DNA from: Psilocybe cubensis
Taxonomy: Eukaryota
Length of the DNA stretch: 64,000 nt
Direction of reading: 5' to 3'
Assembly (NCBI GenBank): GCA_017499595.2
Contig: JAFIQS020000014.1
Location: forward strand, 124,001-188,000
Positions within the stretch are counted from its first letter, which is position 1, and the number at the start of each line of letters is the position of its first letter. The notes under the pieces were generated by a model. The model ran no database searches. It saw only the letters and a list, made by a program, of their open reading frames with translations, and had not been told where the DNA came from. The position numbers and the translations under genes are program-made. Shown here one piece after another: positions 1,853 to 45,970 of this stretch.

Positions 1853-2771
1853 AATGTTGTATGAGTGGATTTGGTATGTAATGTGATTGTGATCATGTCG
1901 AGTGCTCGTATTCATAACTCTACGCGTCAGGTGTGCAAAGAGGCCACACGCTTGCTGCGCGTGTATAATCTCTGCCTGGCAGCTATGATAATAGATTTAC
2001 CAGCAAGATGTGTTGTGTTGTGTAGAAAATACGATAAAAGAAAAGGCATTGGCCAAATTGCTGGGTCACATATCAATAGTCTGAACGCATTTCTTAACAT
2101 CAACTGTAAACTTGAATTCACCAGAGAAACCACGATTCCTGCAAATAAGTTACACAATACACTCACGAGTGTCAGAGAACATTCCCTAAACTACTTCTCT
2201 CGTCCTGCAATGCTACCGCGACAGCTGGAACATAGAAAACAGCAAAATACATGTATACAAATTCCCGGCTTGATTGGATGGAAGAGAACTTTGGTTTCGT
2301 GATTGCGTGATTGCGCTTTGAAGGATGAATGGAATGTAACACAGGTTTCCTTCCAACGGGCACCCACCGGAGTTTACCGAGAAAACAACACCTCCCTTGA
2401 AGTCAAGGGCTGGTTCCTCCTATCATTGTCGGTTATTATTTCTCTTGAGTGTTTATTAATAAATGGTCCCCAAAGTTATTGGCTCAGCTGGTCGGTGTAC
2501 CACTTTCACCGAACGCTATTTGTAGCAGTAAGACCAATTAAAGCTCTTTCGTTGGAATATTGGAGCCTTGAGCTAATTGTGGAATGACCACCACTACCTC
2601 ATCCGTGTTCGGTACAACATATATTTAGGGTATGGCAATGGTAATTAGTATAAAAGTCGATGTATTCCTCAGTATGGCATTTCAGAGTCACTTCAACAAT
2701 ATTCACTGATCAGTCAAACTCCTCTTACAGCTACTGTAACTACCACTCTCTAACGATATTCAATATTCAAA

Positions 2772-3477
2772 ATGGCAGATATCAACTCGGAACTGACCAA
2801 GCAGGTTATCGAATTCACTGAGGTCTTTGCCGAGTTGGATGACCTCGTCGTTTTCACGCCAAAACGTACGTTTTATCAACACTAGCTTGAGTGGTCAAAC
2901 AATTCCATCTAATTAACATTCCTCACAGTACCAGTTGGCGCGAACTGGGGATACCTGGGCCCAGTCGCCTGGAAGCGTGATAGTGATATTGAACAGCACG
3001 TATGTCTGCCCGGCATCTGATAATATTATCATTCACGAACAGTTTCAAATTTCCGTACCCTCGCTTTCTCAATCACAGTACGGCGTGATTTTGTTGACCA
3101 AAGACGGCAGCGACGCGCTTGGAGAGATTGTGGATTGGGTCCCCAATATGGGCACCATTGAGCCATCAAGATTCACAACCTGGCGCGGTATCCCTGCCGA
3201 TCCTGAGAAATACGTATCTGGGGGCGACTTGTTCGTGCTCGGCATGGACAAACCAACCGCAGAGCAAACGGCTGGTATCAAAGCGATCCGAAAGGACCTT
3301 GTCATCGAGAGGACGCCGGACCATCTCATCTGGTCGCGCAGGCTTCCGCGTGACACTGTGTCGCTTAACGATGTTAGGATTGTTACCGGTGTTGAACTGG
3401 CTTCGGGAGCGTTTGTGTCAACTAGTGCCCATGCGGGGGAGGAGAGAACTATCCCTGTAATCCGCTTCTTTTCCTAG
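2772..3477 (+). CDS. Vps62/DUF946-like small protein, copy 2 (187 aa; exons 2772-2865, 2929-2999, 3079-3477)
   Basis: Same exon phases and motifs (VFTPK/LPVGANWGYLG/LTKDGSDALGEIVDW/TTWRGIPADPEKYVSGGD/KPTAEQTAGIKAIRKDLV). TATAAAA at ~2648. Confidence 0.85.
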
Positions 3478-4797
3478 TTCTGACTCTGAGTCAAGTACAG
3501 AGCTTCCTGGTATGTGAACATAACAACGCATTGATGTGTTTTCTGACAGGTTATATAGGCTCCAACACGATCGCTGCGCGTGTATAACTTTGTTTGGCAG
3601 TGAAAAAAAAATGTCGAGATGAATTGTACAATGTAGAAAAATAAAATAAAATAAAAAACTTCTGTTCATTTGGAGACATGTCAATGAACTGTGAAAGAAA
3701 GAAAGTCACTAAAAAAATTGATACTAAAGTGGCTGTTTCAAGCAAGACGGAAGTGTACCGTGATGTACGACATCCAACGAGCCATCGTTGAGGTAGGAAT
3801 CTGTTGACACGTGGAAAATATGTTGGTTCCTCTGCGTCGCAGAGTTGCGGGGGTCGAGGAGGAAGGGAGAGCAGTCATTAGGTGATAAAGTAATGTTTGA
3901 ACGATTTTTAGGGAGGTCGAGCTTAGTGGGATGACACTTCCGTACGAGTTCTGAATAGCCTATGGCATGGTGGGCCTTGAGTCAGCTCGGAATAATATAT
4001 TTCCCTTGTACACAGTTTAGGTTTCCTGTATACCGACTAGCTGACTAGAAAGCAGTGGAGGCAGTTCAGTATTACGAGTAAAAGTAGTCTCAAAACCAAA
4101 CCGTTATGTCCCGCCTTCATACCCTGAGCTTTTTCATTTATTCTCCAACACTTCAGATTTTGGTGTTACATTCGATTTTTTTTAATAGTCTGTGGAGATT
4201 ATTTATCAAGTCTGGTCTATTATTCATCCCTGGTGTCTTTGTCTTGTAATAAATCAACTTGATGTAACTGTCCGAACAAATACTCCAAGGCGTGATTTGG
4301 AGAGGCTTCATTGTTCTGGGTAAGCGTAGTCAAACAGCAAGGCAGCTTCTTTAGATAGAGAAGAACAAAGGGAGATTACACGGTATGTAAAGATGCTGTA
4401 GAGATTTTCCACTGATCTTAGGATAGAATCCTTTGATCAGTCATCACTTGAAGCGAGGTTAATGACCCTGAAGTGGGGGACCGAAGACGCTCAAGGAAGC
4501 TCAACGGAAATTATTGCTTGTTATGTATTTCTGCACTCCCGCCAGTTGTTTGGTGTTCTTGGAAGTTGCTATGAAAGAATACAAGGCGGTTCTGAGGGAA
4601 TTTTGCACTCAGAACACACAGGGACCTTTCATTGGAATAATCGGCAACTTATAGAAACGGTGACTTTACAGTACGGAATACGGTAAGTGAACATGGTATA
4701 AAGGTCTCTGCTCTACTAACTGGGCTTTCAGAATCCCTCGAACCGCTCACCCAACATCCAAACTATCAGTTCCTCTTCTCCCTAAACGTATTAAAAA

Positions 4798-5488
4798 ATG
4801 TCTGAAGGTATCGAGCTGGTGAAAAAGCACATAGAATTCACGGAGGTCTTCGCTGAATACGACGACCTTGTTGTCTACACACCAAGATGTAGGTATCATC
4901 GCAGTACCAGTTGCACATATTTGGTCGTTTAACCATCATCTTTTGCATAGTGCCCCTCGGGGAAAATTGGGCATATCTAGGCCAGGTCGCCAGGAAACGC
5001 GATGGTGAAATTCCAGACCATGTAAGAATTCCATCCATTCCTTAGTTATGCAATGTTAATGACCTATCCTGAATCCTTCTGATTTCCAGTCCGGGATGAT
5101 CCTGTTGGCAAAGGATGGCAGCGATCCTCTGGGAGACATCGTCGATTGGGAGCCCGTTATGCATGGCATTCACCCAACGCCATTCTCAAGTTGGAGGGGC
5201 ATCCCCGCTGATCCTGAGAGATACGTGTCAGGCGGTGATTTCTTCGTGCTTGGAATGAACAAGCCGACTCCAGAACAGACTGCAGGTATCAAAGCCATTC
5301 GCAGAGACCTAATTTTGGAGAGTAAACCAGATCGTTGCATTTGGGGTGTCCCCCTGCCATTCAATGGACTTACCATCTGGGATGTTACACTGTTGGTTTT
5401 GACTCACCAGCCAACGGGAGCATTTGTCTCAACATCTGCACAATCCGCCGACGGCATAACCCTCCCTGTGATCTTTTTCAAAGCCTAG
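4798..5488 (+). CDS. Vps62/DUF946-like small protein, copy 3 (186 aa; exons 4798-4888, 4951-5021, 5090-5488)
   Basis: Open spliced frame MSEGIELVKKHIEF...LPLGENWAYLGQVA...LAKDGSDPLGDIVDWEP...LPVIFFKA* with canonical GT-AG introns. Confidence 0.85.
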
Positions 5489-5769
5489 CAGACCGTCATA
5501 AGCACTGGTACGTTATCTCGTGCTCACATACTCATCAGGTTAATGTCTTTTGCTGATCTATTTCACAGAATTGACACGCCGCTGCGCGTGTATAAATTTT
5601 TGCAGTAAAGGAATCGTTGTATAGGTCTCTGTGTCGTTTTGTTAGAAAAAAACAATACAAATATCATTGAGACTCGGACTCAGCACCGTGTACATGAATC
5701 TATGGGACGACAATTCCATGCACTTCTTCCCCATTTATCATGGTTACCAAAACCTCCCGAGTGAGCTAG

Positions 5770-6030
5770 GACGCAATCGTCTCGTCTGCAAGGTACGCTT
5801 TTTCATAAAAATAGCGCTGTCCTGGGTCATTAGACATAAAAGCTTCATTCACGCTCCATCTGGAGCTTTTACTTCGACATCCAACGACTTTGCCAAAGAC
5901 CTAATGCTCCCTGTCGTGCGTTTCAACGCCTTAAAGATTTTCGTAAATCATGGCATGTTACATGATTCCAGATTTGTCACTGTGTTGAAGTATACGATTT
6001 ACACGGCTGCTGCACTGAACATGTATAATG
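5770..6030 (+). pseudogene. 3' relic of a Vps62-like family copy
   Basis: Translates to ...PSGAFTSTSNDFAKDLMLPVVRFNA, matching the C-terminus of copy 1. No 5' exons. A degraded 3'-UTR motif follows. Confidence 0.7.
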
Positions 6031-6623
6031 TTACATAGTAAACGGCATCTGTTGCTGTATCACCCACAATTGCATGTCTTTAGCAAATTACAAGTACCAT
6101 TGTCGGCCATGCATCCACTACATAGTTTTCATACAGCTTCTCAAAGCGTAACCTTACTCAGAATTAACGCGAATCACCATGAAGTGCGGGACCGAGGAAG
6201 GAAGAATCACCAAAGCATGTCGACGGAAATTACCTTTGTGTTACTACACCCCCCGCCGCCAGGTGGCAGGCGGTCAATATACGCTGAAGAAAAATGAAGG
6301 CTGAAATGGTGTATACATCAACGCGAAATAAGCGAGGCGGTTTTTATATATGATGAAGTGAATACCATTCGGAACGTGCGAGCCTTGTGTTGGGTTAGGT
6401 TAGTTAGGTGACGTTGTTATGTTATGTTATGGGAGAGCCAGCGGTGAGATGGGACAGTATAAAAGTCTGTACACCCCGCACCCCACACGGCCTCGAAAAT
6501 TCCAATCGTCTCGAAAACACACACCTACCTCGCTTGGCAGGAAAAGGAAGTGCACCATCGCCACCGACACCGATACCAACTCCAACTCCAACGCAAACTG
6601 AATTCAATTTTTTCAACTTGACA

Positions 6624-7608
6624 ATGTGCAGCCGCGGCGAACTCGTCCAAAAACACATCGAATTCACAAATATCTCCGCTGAATACGAGGATCTGGTAGT
6701 CTTCACGCCAAAATGCAGGTACCATCTCCATCTCTATATTCATCCTTTTTATTCCTATTTGTATCTCTTCGATATGAAATCGAGTTTGAGTTTCAAGTTT
6801 TGAGTTTCGAGTTACGTGGATTCAATTATTATTAAAGGATAACGGAGTTCCTTATAGCTTAATAAAACACTTTTTCCTGTTTTTGTGCAGTGCCTGTTGG
6901 CGAAGAGTGGGCGTACCTAGGCCAGGTTGCGTGGAAGCGGGGTGGTACAACTCCAGATCATGTAAGTCTTCCATTCCACTATACGTAGTAGATAATACTA
7001 TATACACACCAGTTTGACTGATTCCATCTAACATGCGGTTATGCATCGTCCTCACTGCGCATTCATAATATCCCTAGAAAGGGTTGATTCTGCTAGCGAA
7101 AGACGGTAGCGACGCGCTGGGGGATATAGTTGACTGGATACCCACATCCACCTTCTCCTTCTCCGCCTCCACTTCCTCCCCTTCCACCTCGATCACCTCT
7201 ACTTCCCCCTCACCCGTATTCTCAACCTGGCGCGGCGACCCATCCAACCCGCACAAATACGTTTGCGGAGGCGACTTCCTTGTCCTCAGATGCACCAAGC
7301 CCACACCCGCGCAGAAGGTGGGGATTAAGGCAATACGGAGGGATCTTGTGTTGGAGGTTAGACCGGATCGGGGTGTGTGGGCGCGTGAGGGGGTGGTGTG
7401 GGGTGTCGCTGTGGAGGGAGGCGTGGACACGGAGAACTTTGGCGTGAGGGGGCAGATGCTGAGTGTGTGCAATGCAGATAGGGTGGATTTGCTGCATAAG
7501 CGGACAGGAGCATTTGCGGTTGTGGTTGGACGATCAGGATCAGGATCAGGAGCTGGATCTGCGGTTGGGGCCAGTGCGAGGGTTGTTGTTGTACGGTTTG
7601 ATGCGTAG
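6624..7608 (+). CDS. Vps62/DUF946-like protein, divergent copy 4 (~230 aa; exons 6624-6714, 6891-6961, 7078-7608; first intron GC-AG)
   Basis: Family motifs are retained, with Ser/Thr-rich and Gly/Ser-rich insertions. The frame is kept only if the GC donor at 6715 (T|GCAGGT, homologous to T|GTAGGT of copy 3) is used. Confidence 0.7.
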
Positions 7609-9094: not shown

Positions 9095-9121
9095 ATTTGA
9101 TGTGTGGTAATAAAATTGTAC

Positions 9122-16872: not shown

Positions 16873-17557
16873 ATGTCTCACAGTAATGAAGTTTTTCAAA
16901 ACCACATTGATTTTCTGGATCTTTGTGCTGAATATCAGGGACTCCAAGTCTTCAAAGTTCAAACCCAAACGTGAGTATGAGTATCCCTACGAGTCACAGA
17001 GGTGTTTTCTAACCATTCTTCGAACTTACACAGCGCTGCCAGTCGGTCCAAACGTGGGATACTTGGGCCAGGTCGCATGTACACCTAACGGTAAAGTTCA
17101 GAACCCCGTAAGTATTCAAATTTTAAAATTTCTCAACACACACTCACCTCAATCCTAGCGCGGCCTGTTTTTCCTATTAAAGGAGGGCAGCGATGCCCTT
17201 GGAGACATTGTAGACTGGGAGCCCGTATTCATCGATATTGAACAAGGCCAATTCTCAACCTGGCGCGGTGTTCCCGCCGATCCTGAGCGTTACGTGTGCG
17301 GCGGCCATTTCTTTGTGCTTGGGGTGGACAAGCCTACGGCGGAGCAGACGGCTAGTATCAGAGCCATCCGCAAGGACCTCGTTTCGGAACGTCAGCCGCA
17401 GCGTCTTGTCTGGGAGATCCGCCTACCCAAGGCGAAACTGAGCATTTGGGATATGGAAGTTACGGACCACCTCCATGTCGTACCATGCGCGTTCATATCG
17501 ACGGTATCAGATTCTGTTGAGGAGTTGGAGATACCTGTGGTCCGCTTTGACGCGTAG
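16873..17557 (+). pseudogene. Vps62-like copy 5, frameshifted in exon 1 by a 7-bp duplication (exons 16873-16970, 17034-17107, 17159-17557)
   Basis: Closest to copy 1. A TTCAAAG duplication at ~16951 puts the exon-1 donor out of phase with exon 2. Exons 2-3 remain open. Confidence 0.75.
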
Positions 17558-18480: not shown

Positions 18481-18777
18481 GTGAGCGGTTTGGCGAGCTA
18501 GAGACGGGTAAATAGAATGTTGTAGAATCAAGTTAGTAAACAACTTTTTGATAGTAACAAATACTTAATAAAAAAAAGGAAAAAAATATGACTGAGCGGG
18601 AGAGTAGTGGATAATGGATCAATGTGAAATAGAAAAAATGCAGAAATGCAGAATGCAGAAAACATATACAGAAAAAAGCAATAAGAGAAGCGTGATAGAT
18701 GCGGCGAGGGACGAGGGATAACGAGGGTTGGAGGAGGAGGTGATGAATAAAACAAAAACCACAGCTCACCTTGCCCT

Positions 18778-29645: not shown

Positions 29646-32600
29646 TCACCCCCTCTCTAAGGCACATTTTCCACAATGTGCACATGGATGGGTTAGTTTA
29701 GAGGGTTTAAGAAGAGGAGGAGGTTCAGTAAAGTTAATAATAGGAGTGAAAGAAAGTCTATCAAAGGTCATAGCAGAAATCCTTCTAGGTGCTGAAGGAT
29801 GTTTGGCATGGAAGTCCTTGATAGCCTTAGAAGCATTTTTCAAATGCTCTGCAGGCTCCCAAGTGCATTCTTCATTAGGATAGTTCTTCCACTTGACCAA
29901 ATATTGAAGTTTGTTTCTAAAAAGTCTGCTGTCCTTGATAAATTCAACTTCCCACTCAGGATTTTCTCCTTGAATGACAGGAGGTGGTCTAGAAGGAGGC
30001 TTTCTTTCTACAATATCTGGGTGATAAGGTAGAAGTTTAACCACATTAAACACTGGATGGATTTTCATGGTAGATGGCAGCTTAAGCTCATAGGCATTAG
30101 GGCTAATAACTTTGGTAATTTTGTAAGGCCCATATCTTTTATCATCCAATTTCTTGGAGGGCCTATCAGTTTTGAGGTCCTTGCCATCCAACCATACCAA
30201 ATCCCCAACTTTGTACTGAGTTGGAGTACCTCTGTGTCTATTATAGAATTTAGCCATATCATCAGCAGCTTTTCTAAGTGCAGACTCTGCTTCTTTCCTG
30301 GCTTCTTCCATATTTTTCACAAAGGTATCCACAGTGTCCATTTTACTATCTCTAAGGGGTTCAGTGCCCATTCTGGGATGTCTGCCATTATTGAGCATGA
30401 ATGGTGTCTGCCTGGTTGAAGCCTGAACTCTATTGTTATAAGAGAATTCAGCTAGAGCTAACCATTCAACCCAATCATCTTGTCTATGGTTTATAAAGAG
30501 TCTAAGATACTGCTCAATTTCTTGGTTAACTCTTTCAGTCTGACCATCAGTTTGGGGATGGTAGGCTGTAGATGAGGCTGTCTGGATACCAAGTATTGAG
30601 TTGAGTTCTTTCATAAACCTTGAGACAAACTGTGGACCTCTATCACACAGAATTTTAATGGGTAAGCCATGGTGTTTCCAGACATAATCTCTGTATAGTC
30701 TGGCTGTCCCTTCAGAAGTGACTTCATCTGTAGTAGGGATAATGTGGATCATTTTACTAAGTCTATCCACAACCACCATAATGGCATTATACCCTTGACA
30801 TTCTGGTAACCCCATAATAAAGTCCACAGAGATGCATTGCCAGACATCAGAGGGAATCTCAGTAGGAATTAAAAGGCCAAGAGGTTTGGCTGGAAAGGTT
30901 TTGGTTCTGTTGCATCTATCACAACCTCTGGTATAGGCTGCAATAAAATGTGACATTCCTGGCCACCAATAATTCCTAGAGACTAGCTCAATTGTCTTCC
31001 ATTTCCCTGGATGTCCAGCAATGAAGGCATCATGGTGCAGTTCCACAATCTTTCTTCTAAGATCTTTGTCCTTGGGAACATACACCTTCCCCCTGTAGAG
31101 AATAAGGCCTTGTTCTTCTGACCATTCCTGTCCTTCAATCTTCTTGGTAGAAGATTTCTTGAGCTCCTGAACTGCCTTGACCACCTTTTCATCCATCTCC
31201 TTAGCTTCTCTAATCTTCTTAAGAAGATCATTTTCTGCACCAGTAATGGTAGCATGACCCTGCTTGAGAGCCTGGATTTTAAAGTAGGAAGGTTTGAGGA
31301 GAACTACATTTTGGTTATCATTCTCTCCCTTTTTATGATCTGGTCTCCTAGACAAAGCATCTGGCTTAAGAGATCTTTTACCAGGCCTATGATGAAGAGT
31401 AAAATCAAATCTGGACAGGAAGAGTGACCATCTGGCTTGCCTTCTGCTGAGCTTTTGGGCAACCATAAAGTACTCTAAGTTTTTGTGGTCTGTCCAAATC
31501 TCAAAGGAATGTTGGGTTCCTTCAAGATAATGTCTCCATTCATCTAGTGCTCTGATAATAGCCAGCATCTCTTTGTCATGGATCTCATAATTCCTTTCTA
31601 CTTCAGATAGACTCTTAGACATAAAGGCTACAGGATGCCATTTCCCATCTGATCCTTCCTGAGATAAAACAGCCCCAGTAGCATAATCTGAACTGTCTGC
31701 TTCAACTTTATATGGCTTGTTATCATCAGGGAAAATCAAGACAGGTGAAGAAGTGACTTTCTTCTTTAACTGGTCAAAGGCTTCCTGCTGTCTAAGACTC
31801 CATCTCCAGACTGTTCCTTTCTTTGTCAATTCATGAAGGGGCTTAGCAATGTCTGCAAAATCCTCTATGAACCTTCTATAAAAATTAACAAATCCCAAGA
31901 ATGATTGGACATTCTTGACATTTTCAGGTTCAGGCCATTTAGAAACTCCCTCTACCTTGACAGGATCCATCTCAATCCTGCCTTGTGAAATGATTAGTCC
32001 AAGATATTCAATCTTTTTCTTTTCAAATTCACATTTCTCTGCTTTAAGGTAGAGTTTGTTCTGTTCTAAGATTTGCAGAACTTGCTTGACTACCTCTCTA
32101 TGATGATCAAGAGTCTCAGTGAAAATTAAAATGTCATCCATGTAGACAATGACAACATTTCCATCAATGAGCTCAATAAAGATATCATTCATCATAGTTT
32201 GGAAGGTAGCAGGACTATTGGTTAAACCAAAGAACATGACCAATGGTTCAAACAGCCCTCTATTGGTTCTAAAGGCTGCTTTCCATTCATCTCCCTTTTT
32301 GATTCTGACATTGTTAAATCCCCACCTAACATCAAGTTTGGTGAAGTATTTGGCTTTGCTGAGTTTGGTGATAATGTCAGAAATCAATGGAAGGGGGTAG
32401 GAGTTCTTGATGGTCATTTCATTCAGTTTCCTATAGTCCTGGACAAGCCTAAGAGATCCATCCTTCTTCTTGACAAAGAATACAGGGGAGGCCATAGGTG
32501 ACTTGGAGGGTCTAATCCTGCCAGACTTCAGATTTTCCTCTAAAAAGGCATCAAGTTCCTTTTGTTCATTGGGAGAAAGAGGATAAATCTTGGATCTGTA

Positions 32601-33515
32601 AGGTTCAGAACCAGGTTTCAGCTCAATAGCATGATCCCAAGGCTTTCTGTCTGGTAGCCTATCAAAAGATTCCTTTGAAAAAACACCTTTAAACTGATGA
32701 TAGTGCTTAGGAACAGTTTCTTCAAAGGTTTTCTTAGGGGAATCAGCTTGCTGATGAGACTCTTCTGCTAATTTTTGAGACATAGTAGAAGTAGCATTAA
32801 TAGACTGCTTCTGAGGATGAAGGTATGAAATAAAAATTCTATCCTCAGGCTCAATCTCAGAATCAGAAGAATCTTCAATAGAATCATCTTCTTCTTCATC
32901 AAATTGAGGGAGTTTCCTCCTTTTGACTGCAGCTATTCTCTGCCTCTTTCTTCTGGCTCTTTTGGCTTCCATTTGGCAGTCAGAGGGACATCTAATAAAC
33001 TGGACATCCCCTGTCTTCCAATCAACATCTGGATTATGGTGCCAAAGCCAAGTATGTCCAATGATAGCAGATTTGTCTCCCAAATCACAAACAGCAAAGG
33101 TGGCCCTTTCTGTATGGTTCTTGTGTACCATAATTAAGTCTACTTCCTCATGGATAGAGCCACTCTTGTTGAGAGTACCATCAACATTATAGACTGGAAT
33201 GGCTCTAGGAAGTTTCCTTGTGTTGAGATTATGATACTTCACAAAACCAGAATGCAGAAAGAGGCCAGTAGCTCCAGAATCAAGCAAAGCATCAACAGAT
33301 AACCTTTTCTCTGTGTCCATTGTCTTTAAGATGACAGACAAATGGGTAGAGGTTTTAGGATTATGGTTGAGGATGTAGATCTTTTCAGGGAAGGTAGAAA
33401 GAGAGGAAGAAGAAGACATGATTTCTGCACCAGAATCTGAAGACTGAGGATCAAGTCTGTCAATTTCATTTTCTAGTACATTAAATCTATTCCATTGGGA
33501 CATGTCTTTTACCAA
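29646..33515 (-). CDS. pol: Gypsy Pol (protease, RT, RNase H, integrase, chromodomain), probably via -1 frameshift from gag
   Basis: LLDSGAT, YMDD, ADSSDYATGAVL, integrase HH-CC and DRGPQF/GQTERVN, GPY motif, C-terminal chromodomain WEVEFIKDSR..YLVKWKNY..TWEP. Confidence 0.96.
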   Translation of the reverse strand: MVKDMSQWNRFNVLENEIDRLDPQSSDSGAEIMSSSSSLSTFPEKIYILNHNPKTSTHLSVILKTMDTEKRLSVDALLDSGATGLFLHSGFVKYHNLNTRKLPRAIPVYNVDGTLNKSGSIHEEVDLIMVHKNHTERATFAVCDLGDKSAIIGHTWLWHHNPDVDWKTGDVQFIRCPSDCQMEAKRARRKRQRIAAVKRRKLPQFDEEEDDSIEDSSDSEIEPEDRIFISYLHPQKQSINATSTMSQKLAEESHQQADSPKKTFEETVPKHYHQFKGVFSKESFDRLPDRKPWDHAIELKPGSEPYRSKIYPLSPNEQKELDAFLEENLKSGRIRPSKSPMASPVFFVKKKDGSLRLVQDYRKLNEMTIKNSYPLPLISDIITKLSKAKYFTKLDVRWGFNNVRIKKGDEWKAAFRTNRGLFEPLVMFFGLTNSPATFQTMMNDIFIELIDGNVVIVYMDDILIFTETLDHHREVVKQVLQILEQNKLYLKAEKCEFEKKKIEYLGLIISQGRIEMDPVKVEGVSKWPEPENVKNVQSFLGFVNFYRRFIEDFADIAKPLHELTKKGTVWRWSLRQQEAFDQLKKKVTSSPVLIFPDDNKPYKVEADSSDYATGAVLSQEGSDGKWHPVAFMSKSLSEVERNYEIHDKEMLAIIRALDEWRHYLEGTQHSFEIWTDHKNLEYFMVAQKLSRRQARWSLFLSRFDFTLHHRPGKRSLKPDALSRRPDHKKGENDNQNVVLLKPSYFKIQALKQGHATITGAENDLLKKIREAKEMDEKVVKAVQELKKSSTKKIEGQEWSEEQGLILYRGKVYVPKDKDLRRKIVELHHDAFIAGHPGKWKTIELVSRNYWWPGMSHFIAAYTRGCDRCNRTKTFPAKPLGLLIPTEIPSDVWQCISVDFIMGLPECQGYNAIMVVVDRLSKMIHIIPTTDEVTSEGTARLYRDYVWKHHGLPIKILCDRGPQFVSRFMKELNSILGIQTASSTAYHPQTDGQTERVNQEIEQYLRLFINHRQDDWVEWLALAEFSYNNRVQASTRQTPFMLNNGRHPRMGTEPLRDSKMDTVDTFVKNMEEARKEAESALRKAADDMAKFYNRHRGTPTQYKVGDLVWLDGKDLKTDRPSKKLDDKRYGPYKITKVISPNAYELKLPSTMKIHPVFNVVKLLPYHPDIVERKPPSRPPPVIQGENPEWEVEFIKDSRLFRNKLQYLVKWKNYPNEECTWEPAEHLKNASKAIKDFHAKHPSAPRRISAMTFDRLSFTPIINFTEPPPLLKPSKLTHPCAHCGKCALERG

Positions 33516-33523
33516 TGGTGCTT

Positions 33524-34633
33524 CTAAAAATTTTTCTTTTCCTCATCTTTCTGCTCCTTGCCTTCCAAGATTAATTTCCCAAAGTAGTCAGCCAGTTCTT
33601 CATGGGTCATAGCATTGATGTTAACTAATGACCTGCAGTTTACAGCCTTATGACCAGGCTTTCTGCACTTGAAGCAAACAATTGGCCTAACTGACTTCCA
33701 TCCAGAGTCAACCTCCATGGGAACTACATCTGGTTGCTTTGCCTGAGCACCAAAGGTCCTTGAGCTGCTGTTGGAAAAGACTGGAGGATTTGGAGTAGGC
33801 TTAGGAACAGCCTTGGGAGTTGGGGCTTTAAGAAAGGGAGAAGATGAGGAGGAGGAAAGAGACTTGGTAAAGGCCTCACTCTGTCTCCACTGCCTATCTA
33901 GCCTAGTACTCCATTTAATCCATCCATCCAAGGTTTTGGGCATGTCAGGAACATAGTAGACTGCATTCCTGAGAGTTTCATTGAGCCCAGCCTTGAATTG
34001 GTCTACCAAAGCAGCATCATTATACCCAGTATCTGAGATCAGAGCCCTGAAGCTAGCAACATACTCATCAGCAGTCTGTCTGCCTTGCTTGAGCATGTGC
34101 ATTTTATGCTTAGCTGTGTTGGAGGGGTCTGGATCTGCAAACACTTCCCTAAATTCATAAACAAAGTCAGCCCAAAGACCTTCTTGGGACTGAGCATTGT
34201 CTATTACTTTAGTCTTCTCATATGCCCACTTCCCAGCAGTACCTCCTTTCATATGAGATAGAGCACAAATAACTTTCTGAAAGTCATCTGTAATCCCTTT
34301 CCCATAGAAATATAATTTGAGCTGACTGAGGAAGTTTTCTGCCTTCTCCATAGAACCATCAAATGGATCTGGAGGTGAGACTTTAATGGCAGAGTGTGAA
34401 CAGGAAGGGGCAACATGAGGGGTAGGGAAAGAGTGAATATCTAGAGCAGCAGGTGGTGGTGGTGGTGGTGATAATGGTGACTGACTGACTGGTTGCTGAG
34501 GGTGTGGTGGAGTGGATGATGACTGCTGCTGCTGTCTAAGAAAATTCAACTCTTGGGTAAGGAGCTGGACCTGATGCATGAGCTCTTCCACAGAAGGAGT
34601 GGTGGGAGGCAATTGGGAGGGGTCCATGTCCAT
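33524..34633 (-). CDS. gag: Gypsy Gag with zinc knuckle
   Basis: PDPFDG, LKQG, VPMEVD, CFKCRKPGHKAVNC. Ends in the slippery sequence A AAT TTT TAG, with pol in the -1 frame. Confidence 0.95.
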   Translation of the reverse strand: MDMDPSQLPPTTPSVEELMHQVQLLTQELNFLRQQQQSSSTPPHPQQPVSQSPLSPPPPPPAALDIHSFPTPHVAPSCSHSAIKVSPPDPFDGSMEKAENFLSQLKLYFYGKGITDDFQKVICALSHMKGGTAGKWAYEKTKVIDNAQSQEGLWADFVYEFREVFADPDPSNTAKHKMHMLKQGRQTADEYVASFRALISDTGYNDAALVDQFKAGLNETLRNAVYYVPDMPKTLDGWIKWSTRLDRQWRQSEAFTKSLSSSSSSPFLKAPTPKAVPKPTPNPPVFSNSSSRTFGAQAKQPDVVPMEVDSGWKSVRPIVCFKCRKPGHKAVNCRSLVNINAMTHEELADYFGKLILEGKEQKDEEKKNF

Positions 34634-37600
34634 GGGTAGGGGTAGGTAGGCTCTCTGATGTGTGTGTGGGAGAAGCTATCTACTAAAAGTGCCCTTGAAA
34701 CTATACTAAGTATTCTAAAAAAAATATCTATCTACTGGATACCTAGTTGTCACACCACTCAGGGCTCTAAACCTAGGATCACAGGGTTACTGGATATTTC
34801 CTAGACCACCAAAAACAGAACACTAGTAGGACTGTGTCTGCCCCAACAGTTGGTATCCCTATCTACTAAGTTCACACACAGCACACAACAGAGAGTAGGA
34901 AAGATGATGAGCCAAAGGTCTTGAGGAAAGGTCTTGAGGAGGATGTTGAAGATTGGTGGAGATGTAGAGATTGGTAAGAAGATTGGTGAAGAGGTTGATG
35001 AAGAGGTTGGTGGGTTGGAAGTGGAGGAAGAAGGTTGAGGTAATGGTGTTGAAGAGGTTGAAGAGGTGAAGAGTTTGGTGTTGAAAGAGAGATGGTGGAG
35101 TTGTCTTGAGAGAGCTTCAATCTTCTGTCAGGGCAACACTATAATCAGTGTGACAAGGCCACCAACAAAGATTAAGCAAGAGAGAAAGAGAGAGAGCAGA
35201 GGGAGAGTAAGAGAGCAAAGAGAGAATAAGAGAGTGAGAGAGATTCAATGGTTCTAAGAGATCACACCAATGATAGTGGATATCCTAAGAGATTGAAGCT
35301 GAAGCTACAGCTACCTACAAGTCCAGTATTTATACTCTACAGCTATTCTAGAATATTTCCTACATTACATCATAAAGGAAGGTTAAAGAATAAAAGTGAC
35401 ATCATATAGAAAAAGGATAAGTAAGACTAGGAATCATATAGAATTTACTAGAAAGAAGTGGAGCAAGAAGGCTGTGATGAAAGAAATAAACTATCTAATC
35501 AGATAATTGATAAGATAATGAAAGGATAAGATAATTCTGTGAAGATAAAGAGGGGAAACTGGAGAAACCCTGACACTTCCAGACCAAAAGGACAGATTTG
35601 AAGCTTTGGTCAAAGCACATCCGAACACTGGACCGTTGGGACTCATTGTTGGTGTACCCGGTTTGAGTGGGCCTGGTGAATCTGTTGCAGAAATATCTGA
35701 CGTATACCTGAACGCAGACTGGGTGGCAAAGGAAAGACTTAATCTACGGCGAAAAGCTCTTGGTGAAGGCCTTGGAGGAGACTCGTTTATTTCAGCATTT
35801 ACACGCTTTATGGAAGAGCACCCGGGTTTCGTTATTTACTCCACAGTTGGAGTAGTGACTGTTATCTCTGTTCAATCCAGCTTCATGCGTTCTAATTTAA
35901 TCAAAGACGAGCCTCTGGAAGGACCTATCAATGGGATGGTTAACGATGCGGCGCATGGATGGTGGAAAGAGCACAATTCGCTTCTCATGATCACCTCTAC
36001 CTATTGTTCACGTCTTCTACGATGGGTTCCAGGAGTCATGTCTTATACCAATGGTGCCAGTGCGGAGCATTTCAAATACCACTTTATTGCCGTCTTTCAA
36101 AGCATGGCCCGTGAAGCGGAGTCACGCTCTATAGTCATCAAGGATGAATTATTTGCAGGAGTAAGTAAATTCAAAAAAAAATGTTATATCACACTCATCC
36201 AGCGTTACTATCTTTCTAGGTAATGGACTTCAGCAAAGCGGAGCAAAAGGGATTCATACTTGGGTTTGTAGAGTTCTGGATGTTAAGAGAAGACAACAGA
36301 CGGACCAATCAAGAGCTTATTGTGGGGGCCAAATGTTTGCTGAAGGGGTGCAAAGAGCATTATAGAGCTGCTGTCACTCGCCTCAGTCGTATCAGCGGCG
36401 TAGTTCCACTGGACAAGAAGCATATTTTTGTCTCTCGTGCGATAAACCTACTCAACCTTACGGATAGCTCGGATTTCATTGATCGAGCCGCCCATCTTGT
36501 GCGAGACTTTCCCAAAGTCAAGCCCTGGATGGAGTGGTGGTGCCGTCCCTCAACTGCCTCAATGCTATTTGAATCCGAGCGCATTATGGATATTGAAGTA
36601 TGGGAATCTATACCAGAGACAACCAACACTGAAGAAGCAATGCATTGGAAGCTTTATAGTGCATGTGGACATAATCACGGATTTTTTGAAGGGTTGCATT
36701 CAATGTATGCAGTTGCATATTACTACGAGCGCTTGTTTAAGGCAGCATCAAGTAAGTGTTGGGATAGTATTTTGTCATATTAGGCACAGTCTGACAAAGT
36801 TGTGCTTAGATGGTGTTCCGATTATACACAGACAAGCAGAACGATGGAAAGTGACTGCTGGAAATATTGGACATACAAAGCCTTCTCGCACAGAGGAACC
36901 AGAGACCAAAAGGCGGAAACTTAATGATGGTCGACCACCAGACACATCCAATGAACTGATGAAATCCGATGAGAAATCAAAGAAGTCTGCGAGAGTCCCA
37001 AATTCTCAAATGTATGGCCCTCCCAGCTACCGATGGGAATCAAATTCGTGTTGGCTTGACTCTTCCCTTGAAATGCTGTTTATCTGCATGATGCGCAATC
37101 CGGATGAGGTTTCCAGTGTATTCAGCGATGTTCCTCCATCCTCAGCGTTCAACGAATTCTATAATATCATCAAGTCTAGACTTGAAATAGACGACAGTGT
37201 GGACGACACTTTAGTTACTGCAACTCTTGTCTTGCATCGAAATGCATTTCGTCAAACATTAAAGGACGCTGGAGCAATTACTGGACTCACATCTCCGGAG
37301 TCTGTCATGGTGAGTGCTTGTTTCATGCTATACTATTCTGTAAACACTCTGATTTCTGAATGACTGTAGTGCTGGTTCTATCATATTGTTCGAAATGTGC
37401 CCAACCTTGAGGAATCCCTTCCAGCAGTGTCGTACTTCAGCACCTGGTATGTTGACCTACAGTTCTGTACTGGTTGCAATCATACTGGAGGAAGACACCT
37501 GCAAATTATCCAACCACGTCGCACTGTACCCTTGCAAGCCACTATTCATCTTCACAGAGCTCATAAGGGGAACATTCAGTTGCTCTACAAGGATCATATT

Positions 37601-40600
37601 AGCATCAAGAAGGCCTCTGTTGAGGCGTCAACTTGTTGGCGAGTCAAAGAAGGCAATCTTTTATGCACAGGTACTCGTGAAAATCTTAACCATCTGGTTG
37701 CTTCAATTCCTGTGATTCTTACAATTGAAACTGGTGACGACTCCAATTCCCAAGGTTCTGAACCTCAATCTTGGAGCTTTCCAGCTGCTTTGTATCCGGA
37801 TACACAAGTCCTTGGAAAGAACGATGGCGTTGTATATGATTTAATTGGCCTCGTCCTTTTCAATCCTTCCATCCAACATTTCATATCTCGCTACTCTTCA
37901 CCCGATCGCAAACAGATTTATACCTATGATGGAATGGCACATGGTGGACGGCCCATTATCGAACCAAAGGCTAAATTTGTGAGTTACATTGCTGGCGAAA
38001 AACCAAAACTACCACAGGGATATCGCATATATCAGGCATTCTATCGTCTTCGTGGTGGAGTTCCTGCACAAAAGAAGTTCCATGACATTCGTGTTCATGC
38101 CTTTTCACAACGATTTGGTTTGGTATTTGATAACACAGACTCAGCCATACCAAAAGTTTCTCTGAGGCTGCCTTACGAGGGCTTGACATTACTTGATCGC
38201 TCCAAACGCCAGGCATGGACACAAAGACTTGACAATGCCATCGAGTACATCACCATGGAACCCGGTATATCTGATGAAGACTGCATGGAGATTGATGACG
38301 CTAAGTCCGACACTGGAGAGTCAGAGCGTCCGGACACGCCTATAGTAGAGGACCATCTTGATAAAGAGGAAGATCCACCAAGTTTTCTGGATGGTGCTAA
38401 ATGTGAGGTTGAAGGGGAAGAGCCACCAAATTCGCTGGAAGGTGAACAAATGGAAGAACAGGTCCCACCTAATGGTTCAGATTCTGGAAGAGAATCCTCG
38501 CTCCTCCATTCTCAAGTTTTGTCTATGCCAGATTCACTCTTCTCCATTAATTGTCGCTGTGGTGCCACTGGCAACGGAAACATACTATATCGAGATGATC
38601 TTGAAGGTGCAGTCATATAGTGCAACTCCTGTCAAGAGTGGTCGCATATAGCTTGTCAGCGTCATGGCAGAGCGTGTAGGCTTCACATAAAGGATAGATT
38701 CACATGCCATCATTGCAATCTTGATGTTTTGGAGAAGTTTGATCGCAGACGAGTCTCTGAGCGCAGGTATGAACTCCACTCTAAGTTTGTTTTACACTAT
38801 TAAATGTCAATTCTTTTTTTTTTCAGAGAGATGGAAGATCGCACTCTCTCAAAGAAGCCCTTACACGAACGACTTCGACGAGGAAGAGGAGTTTTGGCAA
38901 AGCACGGATTATTCTGGTATCCCGCTCGTTTAATTCATCTGAAGAACAACGAAGGTTTATTTGGCGTACGCTGGTGGCGAGGTTGCCAATTTCAGGATCC
39001 TGGAGTAAAACCTGATACTGTGAGCTTTGTGGGTCAATTAGATATCGTTGACTCTTTGTGGGGTGATAGATACGGACGTCGTCAGATCCAGGTCAGTTCA
39101 TTTATGTGGCTGAAGCAACCCTACACATACTCATAGATATTTAGCTCGGAAAATGGGAACAAGCATGGCAGATCCCCACGGACGATGATATACTGTCCGA
39201 TCCATCATCAACTCCTTATTCAAGTGAAGTAGACGAGGCTCTTACACCGGCAAAGAAGATACTGTACGACCTTCTTTGCGACCCCGAAAAGGTTGATTCA
39301 AACCTTGTTCCTGCAAAAGCTTGGTTGGAAAGCAAGAATAAGGACATCTTCAAAACCATTATTCCATACACCGGTCCACTCACGGTTGTTGAAAGAGCAC
39401 AAATATCCAATTGGTTTGAATCTGAAATCACCAAGGACAAAAGGCTTAGACGATACTGGGTTTCTCTGCTGCCTTTGGCCCATGCACACACAGTCTACAT
39501 AGCATCTCTCATCTTGAAAAGTCAGCAGAAGGTCAACGACTCGCTTCTTGATTCCGCTTGGGACGTACAGTGCAGTCCAAAACCACTTAGAATGTTTGAA
39601 CGAACCGATGTTGATCTGGAATGTCTCTCTTTCCTAGAAGAGGAGATGTTTGAAAATTCTTTGCGAGCTGGAATTGCTGGAAACTATCAATGGGGGTTGG
39701 ATGTTGGAAACCATCAAGATGACTGGAAGCCTTATTTATGCAGGGATTGGTTCATTGGTGACCGAGAGGTCAATGACGATGAGATGCTGGTATGTGTTCA
39801 TTACAATCTTTTGATAGTATGATCATATTTTGATATCTTTGTATGAAGCCGGGTCCAAAGTACATTGATCAACCCAAAACAAAGGTAGAAGTTCAACCCA
39901 AGAGACCTCGTCCTAAGCCTCGGCCAATTCCAAAGAAACGGAAGTGGGATGACAATTAGTTATTTAGTACAACTGAATGCGTAGCATACTACATTCCTTG
40001 CAGAAAATAGCTTAATATACATTGATTTTCATGCGAATTTTATACAGAACTTTGCACGCAAATAGCACGCTACTTCAACAACGCTGCACGTGTTTAAACA
40101 TCATGCACACGCAAGACATAGCATTTCGCACGCAAAGTTGTGTGAAAGACACGCAAATTTGCTGATTTGCATTTATGCGTGGCACGCAAAAATAGGTCGC
40201 ACGCGGGCTAACCACGCTGATTTCCTGGTGCCCCATGTAGCCTTGTAATGTAAAATTTTATTGAAATAAAGTTTTGCAAGACTGAGTGATGTCAGTGCAT
40301 GTCAGTGCATCGATGTTATATGTCAGTGCATAGACATTATATGTCAGTGCAGACGTGCACTGACATGCACTGACATGCACTGACATTTCTTGTTGCCCCC
40401 CTCCAACCCAACAAAGTACGTGTGCGGCGGGCACTTCTTCAAGCTTGGGGCGGAGAAACCGACCGCAGCTGAGACGGCCGGTATCAGGGCGATCCGCAGG
40501 GACCTCGTCTCGGAGGTGAGGCCGGAGAACCTCGTCTGGAGCTGCCTGCTTTATGGCGATACGCTGTCCTTATATGATGGTGCGTTTGTTGCGGACGATG

Positions 40601-41326
40601 CTGTCCCTTCTGGAGCATTTGTGTCGACTACTGTGGCCCCTGGGACTGGGGTCGATTTTGGAACTATCCCTCTGCTCCGTGTAAAGTGAATGACCTACTT
40701 AGGAGACATGGGATTGAGTGTCTGCCTGTTATGTGAATACGTGCTTGATAATATACATAACACATTGATATGTTTTTGGACATAGGGCAGCACGTGTATA
40801 ATTCTCTTTAGCAGTAAAAAAATACACAAGACAAATATACCATATAGAAAATAAAACTCCAAGTTCATTTGGAGAAATCGGCAAACTTGATTGTAATCGA
40901 GATGCACTTGCGTGCACTTGCATTGCACTTGCATATTGCATGTGAGTGCACTTGTATGCATTGCATAGTAATTGAGTGCCACCGTGCCTATTGAAGGCTT
41001 TTATCGGGGTTGACGCCATGATATCTCTGGAATTAGGTGAGACCGTGACAGTGAGGCTTCCTATGCCCGAATCAAGATACATAGGTCATGGTCGAGTTTT
41101 CCACAGCTGCCTTCAAAATTAAAGACGCAGCCGTCTCCTGCACTGATTCAGACCCGGGAACAGGAACAGACTCTGCCATAGTGTCATCCTCCAAACCTTC
41201 ACTAGCACATCAACGGCTGCAGTAGGCTCTGCTTTTCCGGACAATTTCTATTGGATTGACAACTCCTCAAAAGATAATATTTCTCCACAAATTGATATAC
41301 ACAAATTACAAAGATCAATTGGTACA

Positions 41327-42580: not shown

Positions 42581-44180
42581 CTTATAACAGTAAAAAAAAA
42601 GATAAATAAAAGACAATCAGGCAGAAGAAAACAGAACGGGTGAAGAGAGCATTTTTGAGAACGAGGTAGAACGTGAAACGTAGAACGTAACCGTAAACTA
42701 ACCATCTCATACGTACATACCATACCGTGCTATAAAATCGCATTATAAAACACCCAAGACACAAAGTCTGAACAAATCCAACGCTCATGCATTTTTATAA
42801 AACAGCTTCGATTTTCAGATCGAAAAAAAAGCGAAAAAGGAAGCAAGCAAGGACGGAGGAAGGGAGGGAGTGAAGGAAGATTGACGACGAGAAATAAAGC
42901 AAGGAGAGCGTGTGTATGGGTGTATGAGCGTAAGCGCGCGTGTGTGTGTGTGTGTGTTTATGCGTATGTGCGTGTGCGTGTGTGAGGGGTAAATCAGGCG
43001 AGTAGTGCATGAGTAAAAGCATTAAACATCGAACATTGAACATTGAACATCGAACATTGAAATATCGAAATATTGAAATATTGAACGGGGGAAAACAAAA
43101 CAACAAGCCATGGTAGGGAAGCAAACAGGGGAGGTGAGCGAGTGAGACAGACAGACAGACACAAAGGCGAATTGAAAGTGTCCAAATTCACGCCCGAGTC
43201 CAAGAACACATGCAACGTGGGGGACTTGTCGAAAAATCGAAATCGAAATTTAAATCGAGATCCATCGACATTTTTACGAGAAAAAAGAATAGAGCAAAAC
43301 ATAGGGAGAAAAAAAATCAACGACAAAATGGGGTATTGGATGGGATGTACGGATCCACATGGACCTATACACTAACCCTTACCCTATCCCTTAGTATGAC
43401 ACAATTTTCCGTTGAAAAAGCAAACATTGAGAAATAGAGTTGTACTTACTAGTTTTTGGCCTTTCTTTATGTTGTAGTGCTTACATTCTGAGTGTGCGAA
43501 CAGCCTATTGCATGGCATTCTGATAAAATTAGCAAAGACCGTGGTAAATTTAAACTTGTGTCGTGGTAAAGCTGTGGTCAAGTCGTGGTTTCATCAAAAC
43601 CAATGGTGTACGTGTTGGTATTATCCTAGGGCGGTCTCTCTGAAGATGGGCTTCCGTAAAGCAGTTATTTCAACAGATTGTTAAGGGTGCAATTCTTCCA
43701 GAAAATCTGAAATTTAACTGAGTTTATATTGGCCTATCACAGCAAAGCATAATTTGTCTTGCTGTGGGTGTTTACATAGATTATTTTGATGCAGAAGGAG
43801 CCGAGATAAGTTGGAAACAAAAAAAATTGAGAAATAATTACAAAAGTTGTTTGAAAGTGAATAGGACTTGGTATAGGTTCATATAAACCGGGTATTACTG
43901 TATCATTGATAAGAAAACCATTTGATACAGCAATGTAAGCCTAGGTCACAGTACGACCACACCAAAGTACGTTGTTCAACTAAGGGTGTATGTACTAATG
44001 ATTAAGTACTTCATTACGAAACCTGACACAAATGTACGTATCAAGGTTCTGGATTTTCTATTTTTGTACTGACCAAAATCTGAAGCCAGACACTTCGCAT
44101 TTTCAACGGAAAATCGTGTCATACCTTAGCCTGACCCTATCCCTGACTTGGACCCTCACCCACACCACCTTTACTTCCCA
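42581..44180 (-). repeat. Inverted, diverged copy of the MADS gene stop codon and 3' flank (53790-54631), interrupted by a MITE
   Basis: Reverse complement matches from GGGAAGTAAAGGT through GGTCCATGTGGATCCGT, TCTTGGACTCGGGCGTGAATTTGGACAC and AAAAATGCTCTCTTCACCCGTTC to TACTGTTATAA. Confidence 0.88.
43394..44124. mobile_element. MITE (731 bp) with 25-bp TIRs and 4-bp TSD CTTA
   Basis: GTATGACACAATTTTCCGTTGAAAA ... TTTTCAACGGAAAATCGTGTCATAC, flanked by CTTA on both sides. Confidence 0.88.
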
Positions 44181-45970
44181 AAAGATGTCACTAGGAGTAC
44201 TTCAAAGTAAACATCCAATGGTCCTTGGTCCACGCCATACCAATTCATCCAGGTTGCTGTGTGTTTGTTGATTGAGTGCATGACAATTGTACGGCCGACC
44301 GTGGTCGTCCGAAGAGCCCTGTGCTCAACATCCAGAATCACAGCAGAAAGCCAGAGCAAAGTGACTTTTGGACTTACTTAAAGTAGACAAACAAATCCGA
44401 GCAGGTGAAGTCTGAAGCAAGGAAATGGAAGAGGGACATGGGGTCTTCAGCGCCACACCCATAATTTCCGTCTATGATCCCTGAACCACTTCCCTCATTC
44501 TGACCAGCCTACCGAAATCGCATGAACTTCAACAATAACAGAATGTACGTAATCCCTCGGCTTCGTTGGCTGGAGGTGAGTTCTAGGTGGGTAATCGAGC
44601 CTTGAAGGATGAAGGGTCCCTTCTATCAGGCTGATATCATATCATGTACCGAATGACCTCCGAAGTAGGGAACCGAGAAAGATTGTCCAACGCAGAGAGT
44701 GTAAATGACGGTTGGGAAAGTGAGCAGGCGCAAACGCTATATCCGATATCGAGAGATCGATGCTTGCACTGAACGTCGCTATTCGGGTACGAACCCGGAA
44801 CACGCAGAAACAAGGGTCTTTCGTTGGAACTTTCGAGATTGATTTGACCACATCGTGGAGTGAGCACCACCACGACCTCACTGTTCTGCCCCGAACAATC
44901 CACGTACAGGGTCTGGCGGCGATTAGTATAAAAGTCGACGTATTGTGAACCTTGCACTCTAAAGTCACTCCACCAACACTCACTGAACACTTACTTTCTT
45001 CTTACATCCTCTACCACCCTCTAACTATACTCAGTATTCGAAATGTCCAACTCCAAATCTGAACTCACTAAGCACCTAGTCGAATTCACCGAGACCTCTG
45101 CTACATACGAAGACCTCGTCGTTCTCACTCCAAGACGTATGCCTCGTCAATACCTTGCACAGTCACACAAATATCTCTGACCAACATTCCTCCTCACAGT
45201 ACCATACGAAGGAAACTGGGGATATCTAGGCCAGGCCGCCTGGAAACGTGACGGCCCAACCGCGCCTCCCGTAAGCCATTCCCCAAACACCCGCCCAGTC
45301 CAAACAACCATCCTAACACCCCTTCTCCTCCTCCTCCCTCATCTTCCATGCAGCGCGGATTCATCCTCATGGCCGCAGAAGGCAGCGACGCGCTAGGCGA
45401 CATCGTCGACTGGGAGCCAGTCCTGCGCAGCGTCGAGCCCACGCCGTTCACCACCTGGCGCGGCGTCACGCGGGACCCAAAGTACGTGTGCGGCGGCGAC
45501 TTCTTCAAGCTCGGAACGGAGAAACCGACCGCAGCTGAGACGGCCGGCATCAGGGCGATCCGCAGGGACCTCGTCTCGGAGGTCAAGCCGGAGAACCTTG
45601 TTTGGAGCTGCAGGCTTCCGTTTGATACGCTGTCGATTTATGATGTTGCGGTTGTTACGGGTGTGGTTATCCCTACTGGAGCGTTTGTGTCGACTACTGC
45701 GCCGAGTGGGATCAATTATGAAACTATCCCTGTGCTCCGTGTTGAGTGAATGATGTACTTGGGAGACATGGTTTTGAGAGTCTGCCTGGTATGTGAATAC
45801 GTGCTTGATGATATACACAATACATTAATATGTTTTTGGATATAGGACTCCACACGCTCGCTGCGCGTGTATAATTCTTTTTAGCAGTAAATAATACACG
45901 AGACGAATGTACTATATAGAAAATAAAACTACAAGTTCATTTGGAGAAATCGGCAAGCTTGATTGTAATC
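44181..45970 (+). repeat. Segmental duplicate of 17900-17985 + 21510-22709 + 40408-40900 (pre-insertion state of the copy-6 locus)
   Basis: Long collinear identity in promoter, gene and 3' flank, lacking both large insertions. Confidence 0.9.
45043..45749 (+). CDS. Vps62/DUF946-like small protein, copy 7 (186 aa; exons 45043-45136, 45200-45270, 45354-45749)
   Basis: Open spliced frame MSNSKSELTKHLVEF...NWGYLGQAA...AAEGSDALGDIVDWEP...TTWRG...KPTAAETAGIRAIRRDLV...IPVLRVE*. TATAAAA at ~44927. Confidence 0.87.

Follow-up and report, generated by a model that had tools for sequence, protein, structure and literature searches.

Short structured motifs in the 3' untranslated regions (3' UTRs) of fungal mRNAs have been described for rps0 (PMC5640933) and for thioredoxin, GLY1 and MET13 (PMC8216456), where, according to the main texts, they are supported by covariation across tens to hundreds of ascomycete genomes. 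They are the closest kind of system to the element reported here, which lies in 64,000 nucleotides (nt) of Psilocybe cubensis DNA (GenBank assembly GCA_017499595.2, contig JAFIQS020000014.1, positions 124,001 to 188,000; this whole stretch is referred to as the window) and follows the stop codons of four paralogous genes, copies 1, 2, 3 and 7 of a tandem array. Like the published motifs, as their main texts present them, it is short and conserved, goes with the 3' UTR of a single gene family and is proposed to be read by a protein. Unlike them, it belongs to a basidiomycete, is carried by four paralogues of one species, shows no covariation, possibly forms a pseudoknot and follows a UTR intron. 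By those main-text descriptions it may be distinct from both sets of motifs, and their supplementary alignments could bear on its novelty. No description of the element or of the gene family was found in the literature searched, which was largely open-access. Judging from sequence comparison, it is an undescribed, lineage-restricted and selected 3'-UTR element of four paralogues in one species.

The comparative screen of PMC8216456, as described in its main text, started from ascomycete query genomes only, and a word count of the main text of PMC5640933 finds no mention of basidiomycetes; as far as these sources go, mushroom mRNAs therefore look little explored for structured elements. An element of about 35 nt that is better conserved than the surrounding coding sequence offers a modest way, open to direct testing, into the post-transcriptional control of mushroom genes. 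Its study also brought to light a UTR intron missing from the annotation and a group of clustered genes for predicted stand-alone beta-tripod proteins, akin to the domains by which MACPF proteins are targeted. So far the finding extends to one gene family of one species.

Several other RNAs resemble the element in part. Smaug/Vts1 recognition elements are likewise short mRNA hairpins with CUG in the loop, whose rule, in the part of PMC2573929 that defines it, is CNGGN(0-1); the Psilocybe loop is (U)YGCUGC, and this identity was rejected, as a CNGG loop occurs in none of the four copies. The plant-virus exoribonuclease-resistant RNAs xrRNA_LT and xrRNA_D, in the account given by the relevant section of PMC7668246, are also compact 3'-UTR hairpins whose loop pairs downstream in a pseudoknot of 4-5 base pairs (bp), with AGY near the 3' strand. 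The element differs from them in the absence of the P1-J1/2-P2 architecture and its conserved core, and in having AGY within the pairing strand, which in the viral RNAs stands adjacent to it; it was for this core, with AGY beside the pseudoknot strand, that xrRNA_LT was set aside. It also resides in a cellular mRNA.

The preQ1-I riboswitch and viral H-type pseudoknots are about 35 nt long, with a first stem of 5-6 bp, a short first loop and an A-rich third loop. The Psilocybe element is alike in size, first stem and short first loop, and its third loop starts with AUAA; however, this loop is pyrimidine-rich, not A-rich, the second loop measures 0-1 nt, and there is no slippery site, the element lying 24-45 nt past the stop. 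It differs from these pseudoknots, as from the xrRNAs, in matching no Rfam family.

Sequence and distribution of the element

In its own genome the gene family consists of a tandem array on contig C14 and one copy on contig C6. The array comprises c0, just left of the window, copies 1 to 4, a fragment termed 3b, and copies 5, 6 and 7. The pattern ACACG-N(1-3)-YGCTGCGCGTGTATAA matches four times in the window (1946-1968, 3565-3587, 5574-5595 and 45852-45874), a count that none of 100 shuffles reached. An earlier note on this DNA, made from the letters alone, had placed the motif behind these same four genes, and the pattern search bears out all four sites; the ends given there were exact for copies 2 and 3 and one base too long for copies 1 and 7. 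Its stop-to-motif distance of about 85-105 nt agrees with genomic gaps of 93, 87, 85 and 102 nt in copies 1, 2, 3 and 7, respectively. The TAGAAAA block that it saw after the motif is indeed present in all four copies, and damaged versions of the motif were found where it had reported them, near 6001, 17646 and 40786, with none behind copy 4.

A search of the P. cubensis genome (46.6 Mb) with the exact motif returned four matches, all of them the window copies 1, 2, 3 and 7, and allowing one mismatch in the 15-nt core added a single match elsewhere. There were no exact matches in viral contigs or in prokaryote genomes. With a relaxed pattern of the first stem (S1, ACACG with CGTGT) plus TATA, at least 10 matches were obtained genome-wide versus at least 24 for the reversed control, and the relaxed pattern CGTGTATAA..GCAG gave at least 14 versus at least 13. 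The genome scan for the motif behind unrelated genes, recommended with the original observation, thus gave no sign of it, since the relaxed patterns do not exceed their reversed controls.

Rfam covariance models gave no match at the gathering score across the window, and two matches at expectation values (E) up to 10 over 1850-6100, neither of them on the element, in line with the earlier failure to recognise a named one. A Helitron-type end or other transposon remnant was ruled out by the presence of four copies only, all tied to genes.

Conservation beyond common descent

The proteins of copies 1, 2, 3 and 7 share 53-60% identity. Only 5 of 38 four-fold degenerate sites are invariant across the four genes, and pairwise synonymous divergence (dS) ranges from 0.96 to 3.37, which is near saturation. 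The longest string common to all four, 15 nt, lies behind the stop codon, in the element; elsewhere the shared strings reach no more than 8 nt (exon 3), 6 nt (the 300 nt upstream) and 4 nt (introns 1 and 2). Under a simple model of independent sites, the probability of an invariant run of 15 nt is about 6e-12 if the measured invariance is used and 0.02 if invariance is set at 60%.

The element has decayed in 3b, 5 and 6, which are young broken copies: copy 5 has lost its downstream GCAGY strand, and copy 6 lacks 13 nt of the element in a UTR that is otherwise 89% like that of copy 7. The survival of the 15-nt run against near-saturated synonymous sites, together with this decay in broken genes, is good evidence that the element has been kept by purifying selection beyond neutral expectation. 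The damaged motifs of c0, 3b, 5 and 6 each bear a CpG-to-CpA change inside the motif; as context, CpG in the coding regions is not strongly depleted (0.71-1.18).

A terminal intron and the position of the element in the mRNA

Copies 1, 2, 3, 5 and 7 contain a GTATGT or GTACGT donor 19-39 nt past the stop codon, and the motif starts 5-6 nt after an AG; together these predict 3'-UTR introns of 49-67 nt. The surrounding UTR had been described as diverged; it is, and much of the upstream divergence is this intron, which was overlooked at the time.

Four of the five sequencing runs listed were aligned to 10 kb spanning c0 to c4. Both coding introns of copy 1 are spliced (GT..AG) in runs X1 and X2, which come from one study, and unspliced in X4 and X5. 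None of the runs is annotated as RNA, and X1 and X2 were treated as such because, unlike X4 and X5, they show spliced joints. Their cover excludes the UTRs of copies 0-4, and for these it provides no evidence either way. However, a 722-nt contig of X1, cross-matched twice, has loose ends that correspond to copy 7: one is the visible junction of exons 1 and 2, the other the 27 nt that follow the motif. Between these anchors it is 57 nt below the unspliced length, which is exactly the predicted intron 45789-45845, and the motif is retained. The copy 7 element is therefore part of the spliced mRNA, where it opens the last exon 45 nt past the stop, as read from the length of one contig in which the joint itself is not displayed. 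In copies 1-3 the intron is a homology prediction, which would place the element 24-38 nt past the stop. The idea that the motif is transcribed into mature mRNA thus holds for copy 7 and, by prediction, for the other three.

At or close to the stop codon, 8 metagenomic relatives (out of 49 candidate stretches) likewise show the splice signals of an intron. As these signals occur without the motif, the terminal intron looks old and the element lineage-restricted. Six closely related homologues from metagenomes (L018-L022 and L024) have a conserved last-exon block of their own, GGATTGTATGGCGC-TTTTGTAGT; this may be another element that occupies the equivalent place.

Candidate 3'-end signals are found downstream of the element: TAGAAAA in 4/4 copies, AUGHAH in 2/4, and CATT 21-33 nt after TAGAAAA. 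In Cryptococcus, AUGHAH or an A-rich sequence peaks at about -20 and CA marks the cleavage site, according to the profile given in PMC3990503. The spacing of TAGAAAA and CATT fits this profile and suggests that the element is probably upstream of the poly(A) site. No basidiomycete poly(A) signal as given in that profile occurs inside the element, and the proposal that its UGUAUAA arm assists polyadenylation loses ground, the likely poly(A) signals forming a separate block further downstream.

Predicted fold

In isolation, the copies are predicted to fold as a stem of 5-6 bp with a loop of 6-9 nt, on which ground the inner CG-CUG-CG triloop that the earlier note had proposed (as YG-CTG-CG) was rejected. 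The loop contains an invariant GCUGC, and a complementary GCAGY is kept 10-14 nt past the stem in all four copies. A plain hairpin explains neither the invariant loop nor the downstream GCAGY. Their pairing as a second stem (S2) accounts for both, and would produce an H-type pseudoknot of 33-38 nt in each of the motif copies, a fold that we consider plausible.

A script for H-type pseudoknots was run on 17 last-exon starts, requiring crossed stems of at least 5 bp and loops L1, L2 and L3 of 1-3, 0-1 and 4-20 nt. It detected such a pseudoknot in all four motif copies, with summed stem energies of -21.4 to -22.8 kcal/mol, loop penalties excluded, and for each of the four none of 100 shuffles equalled them. 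No pseudoknot was detected in five other paralogue ends (c4 was left out), and one of the eight relatives has a weak one, equalled by 18 of 100 shuffles. In S2 one pair alternates between G-C and G-U among the copies, and in copy 2 the sixth pair of S1 is lost and S2 is extended to 7 bp. The S2 pattern occurs four times in the genome, in every case at a motif copy, and the chance of such an S2 partner, assuming a single origin, is 0.7-6%.

Proposed mechanism and points against it

We suggest that the element would serve as a gene-family-specific cis-regulatory RNA at the start of the non-coding last exon. It would fold as an H-type pseudoknot with S1 formed by ACACG(C)/(G)CGUGU, an L1 of 1-2 nt, S2 formed by GCUGC/GCAGY, an L2 of 0-1 nt and an L3 of AUAA plus pyrimidines (10-14 nt). 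A protein might recognise this fold together with the invariant UGUAUAA, which is the weakest step, and, once bound, would set the stability or translation of the beta-tripod transcripts jointly. Such joint control of copies 1, 2, 3 and 7 through a protein-read pseudoknot falls, in our view, slightly short of an even chance, and a selected role of some kind at the RNA level, with the readings combined, is likely. If the fold is real and functional, an H-type pseudoknot in the 3' UTR of a cellular mRNA would be unusual.

A number of observations speak against this proposal. The hairpin alone is no more stable than its shuffles (z-scores -1.6 to +0.5), nested folding of the mature UTR prefers other pairings in three of the four copies (S1 probabilities of 0.07, 0.01, 0.96 and 0.24), and no two-sided covariation supports S1, whose five pairs are all invariant (0/5 covary) in the four paralogous sequences, a small set for such a comparison. 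These results leave a simple hairpin weakly supported; of the selected cis-regulatory stem-loop first envisaged, selection and presence in the copy 7 mRNA stand, and the simple hairpin, as stated, is not supported. The pseudoknot test itself was post hoc, written after the pairing had been noticed, on four copies that share one origin, and it scored summed stem energies, not a true pseudoknot energy model. A CAG after TATAA persists in c0 and in the C6 copy without the loop, and GCAG may therefore be retained for another reason. Moreover, c0, c4 and the C6 copy have open frames yet lack the element, the motif-less c0 protein has changed no faster than that of c3 (11 versus 12 derived residues), and the element is absent from 8/8 metagenomic relatives. 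Finally, RNA support comes from a single contig of a single study, read indirectly.

Alternative explanations

The element could instead be a linear or hairpin-presented site for an RNA-binding protein, GCUGCGCGUGUAUAA being selected and the GCAG complementarity incidental. The stem positions are all invariant and not covarying, folding is weak, and the sequence contains UGUA, the core of PUF and CFIm binding sites. However, such a site leaves the conserved 5' ACACG complement unexplained, and likewise the GCAGY strand at its variable spacing, and 15-20 invariant bases appear long for one site. The Puf3-type site is UGUAHAUA; this consensus is found in 0/4 last exons, which rejects a Puf3-type site and, as far as this one consensus goes, speaks against the PUF-type role suggested for the UGUAUAA arm, and the Smaug/Vts1 loop is missing as well. 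We regard a linear site as rather unlikely.

A role in splicing or 3'-end processing is unlikely. The element would enhance the acceptor 5-6 nt upstream, a distance that is indeed fixed, or its fold would hide a second acceptor, ATAAY-pyrimidines-CAG, so that alternative splicing would keep or remove the element. The distal AG lies inside S2, TAA-pyrimidine-YAG is found at 9/9 aligned paralogue ends (c4 not included), and the terminal intron exists, judged by splice signals, in the eight relatives too. Nevertheless, in the only informative RNA contig splicing is to the proximal acceptor (45845 in copy 7), and the distal AG (45887) is read through. A YAG after TAA is no rarity (223 of 819 sites in the window), ATAAY is weak as a branch point, and separate poly(A)-like signals lie downstream. 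A related version, in which the pseudoknot is a switch that buries the alternative acceptor in S2 and a protein or small ligand sets its folding, is quite unlikely. If it were true, folding would decide whether beta-tripod transcripts keep or lose the element or leave a nuclease-resistant 3' fragment, and the element, at the head of a non-coding exon dedicated to it, would define a novel class of compact pseudoknots among the cellular mRNAs of fungi.

The invariant sequence, its inverted repeat and TATAA core would also suit a DNA element, either a transcription-factor site or a TATA-like box, which would serve the array and have been copied along whenever a gene was duplicated, particularly as each UTR of a tandem array precedes the next gene. 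This is very unlikely. The inverted arms are not evenly spaced (8 or 9 nt apart), nothing of the family follows copy 7, and no conserved downstream unit extends past about 100 nt. The element keeps its place relative to the splice acceptor, and the alternation with G-U in S2 is in keeping with pairing in RNA.

That the element has no function, and survives from the common ancestor or from short tracts of gene conversion among the paralogues, seems highly improbable. The copies are tandem paralogues, and c0, c4 and the C6 copy dispense with the element. Against this, divergence at synonymous sites approaches saturation, and no string longer than 4 nt is common to the introns. Conversion would need to have struck one stretch of ~20 nt in all four genes while sparing the flanks, and the element decayed quickly in the young broken copies.

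A short peptide, T-R-x-L-R-V-Y-N, made by readthrough, from a downstream open reading frame (ORF) or through an alternative donor, is scarcely credible and a coding role was rejected: copies 1, 2 and 7 differ partly at third positions of that frame, but in copy 3 the frame is off by one base, and the motif begins either 5 or 6 nt past the acceptor. Readthrough would lead into the peptide in copy 7 only, copies 2 and 3 lack an AUG ahead of the junction, and synonymous positions are invariant.

Host genes of the element

Among 36 candidates, 9 protein matches were obtained; the best carry Psilocybe cubensis source names, and homologues occur in P. cyanescens (among them CVT25_006341, CVT25_015573 and CVT25_006647) and in Agrocybe pediades. 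A profile search extended the family to 68 relatives. In a Pfam scan of 24 proteins in all, the three whole window proteins gave no match, and some relatives matched Vps62 (PF06101) or have the domain behind MACPF. A sequence search of the PDB with the host protein gave a single match, at E 1.3. An earlier structure model built from nine sequences was poor; the one from 36 sequences reached a predicted local distance difference test score (pLDDT) of 92.8 and resembles GNIP1Aa (6FBM) with E 9.4e-08 and a template modelling (TM) score of 0.78, and the chains of pleurotolysin B (PlyB) with TM of about 0.55-0.59.

The matching domain of GNIP1Aa is a beta-tripod target-recognition domain, as stated in the pertinent part of PMC8624791. 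According to the structure model, the host proteins are stand-alone beta-tripod (Vps62-like) domains with the fold of the C-terminal domains of GNIP1Aa and PlyB; unlike those proteins, they are lone 186-residue domains without a pore-forming domain. The D-X-G-S/T-G-X3-D signature described in that part of PMC8624791 is not evident by eye in the Psilocybe rows of the alignment, and similar repeats are seen in distant rows. By eye, there is no evident leader peptide. The proteins possibly serve defence.

Table 1. Genes, terminal introns, elements and 3'-end signals of the array (window coordinates; aa, amino acids; S, stem; L, loop)
Feature	Position	Strand	Remarks
Copy 1 coding region	1182..1852	+	186 aa; exons 1182-1272, 1330-1400, 1454-1852; equals P0004
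Copy 1 3'-UTR intron	1874..1940 (67 nt)	+	Predicted; GTATGT donor, AG; acceptor picked by homology to copy 5
Copy 1 element	1946..1983	+	S1 ACACGC/GCGTGT, L1 TT, S2 GCTGC/GCAGC, L3 14 nt
Copy 1 3'-end signals	2023..2050	+	TAGAAAA (likely poly(A) signal) and, 24 nt on, CATT (likely cleavage site)
Copy 2 coding region	2772..3477	+	187 aa in our model
Copy 2 3'-UTR intron	3510..3558 (49 nt)	+	Predicted
Copy 2 element	3565..3603	+	S1 5 bp, L1 A, S2 7 bp TCGCTGC/GCAGTGA, L2 G, L3 13 nt
Copy 3 coding region	4798..5488	+	186 aa (P0001); predicted stand-alone beta-tripod/Vps62-like fold
Copy 3 3'-UTR intron	5508..5568 (61 nt)	+	Predicted
Copy 3 element	5574..5606	+	S1 6 bp, L1 C, S2 GCTGC/GCAGT, L3 10 nt
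3' gene fragment c3b	5830..6045	+	Left limit approximate; stop 5934; decayed element near 6001
Copy 4	6624..7608	+	~230-aa open frame if intron 1 has a GC donor; no element behind
Copy 5	16873..17557	+	Exon 1 frameshift; decayed element near 17646, GCAGY strand lost
Copy 6	22279..40689	+	One gene in two parts, with a 17.7-kb Mutator-like insertion between them; part of the element deleted near 40786
Copy 7 coding region	45043..45749	+	186 aa; exons 45043-45136, 45200-45270, 45354-45749
Copy 7 3'-UTR intron	45789..45845 (57 nt)	+	X1 record 6 exactly 57 nt short of the unspliced model
Copy 7 element	45852..45888	+	S1 6 bp, L1 TC, S2 GCTGC/GCAGT, L3 13 nt
Copy 7 3'-end signals	45907..45941	+	AUGHAH, TAGAAAA/AATAAA, CATT; likely

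For copy 2, the source model P0003 is 199 aa long and uses a different acceptor (Table 1). In copy 4 (window 6715) and in the C6 copy (L011 1309), the frame across intron 1 is kept only with a GC donor. Upstream, the array shares a motif pair, AAGTGSGGGWCCGA followed by CGWCGGAMATTA, at 878, 4471-4513, 6182-6232 and 10075-10123. Copies 3 and 4 have it ~300-400 nt ahead of their starts, copy 1 has the second half alone at this distance, and the instance at 10075-10123 stands to the left of the copia element preceding copy 5; these are likely promoter sites of the gene family. A reversed AGACGGAAATTA is found upstream of copies 6 and 7.

Neighbouring genes and transposons

A separate spliced gene (L016 1150-2155, minus strand) lies between c0 and copy 1 and runs into the first bases of the window; run X2 shows its three introns. 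Between copies 5 and 6 (18700-20650, minus strand) there is a broken sequence that, from its ORF translations, we take to be HSP60/chaperonin-like.

The 17.7-kb Mutator-like insertion in copy 6 (22710-40398) has terminal repeats and a 9-bp target duplication with one mismatch, and the 3'-UTR intron donor of this gene is changed. A gypsy element is nested inside the Mutator-like element. The observed/expected CpG ratio is 0.0 in the gypsy ORFs (29646-34633) and 0.92 in the copia element (10452-16209), so of these two elements gypsy alone has lost its CpG completely.

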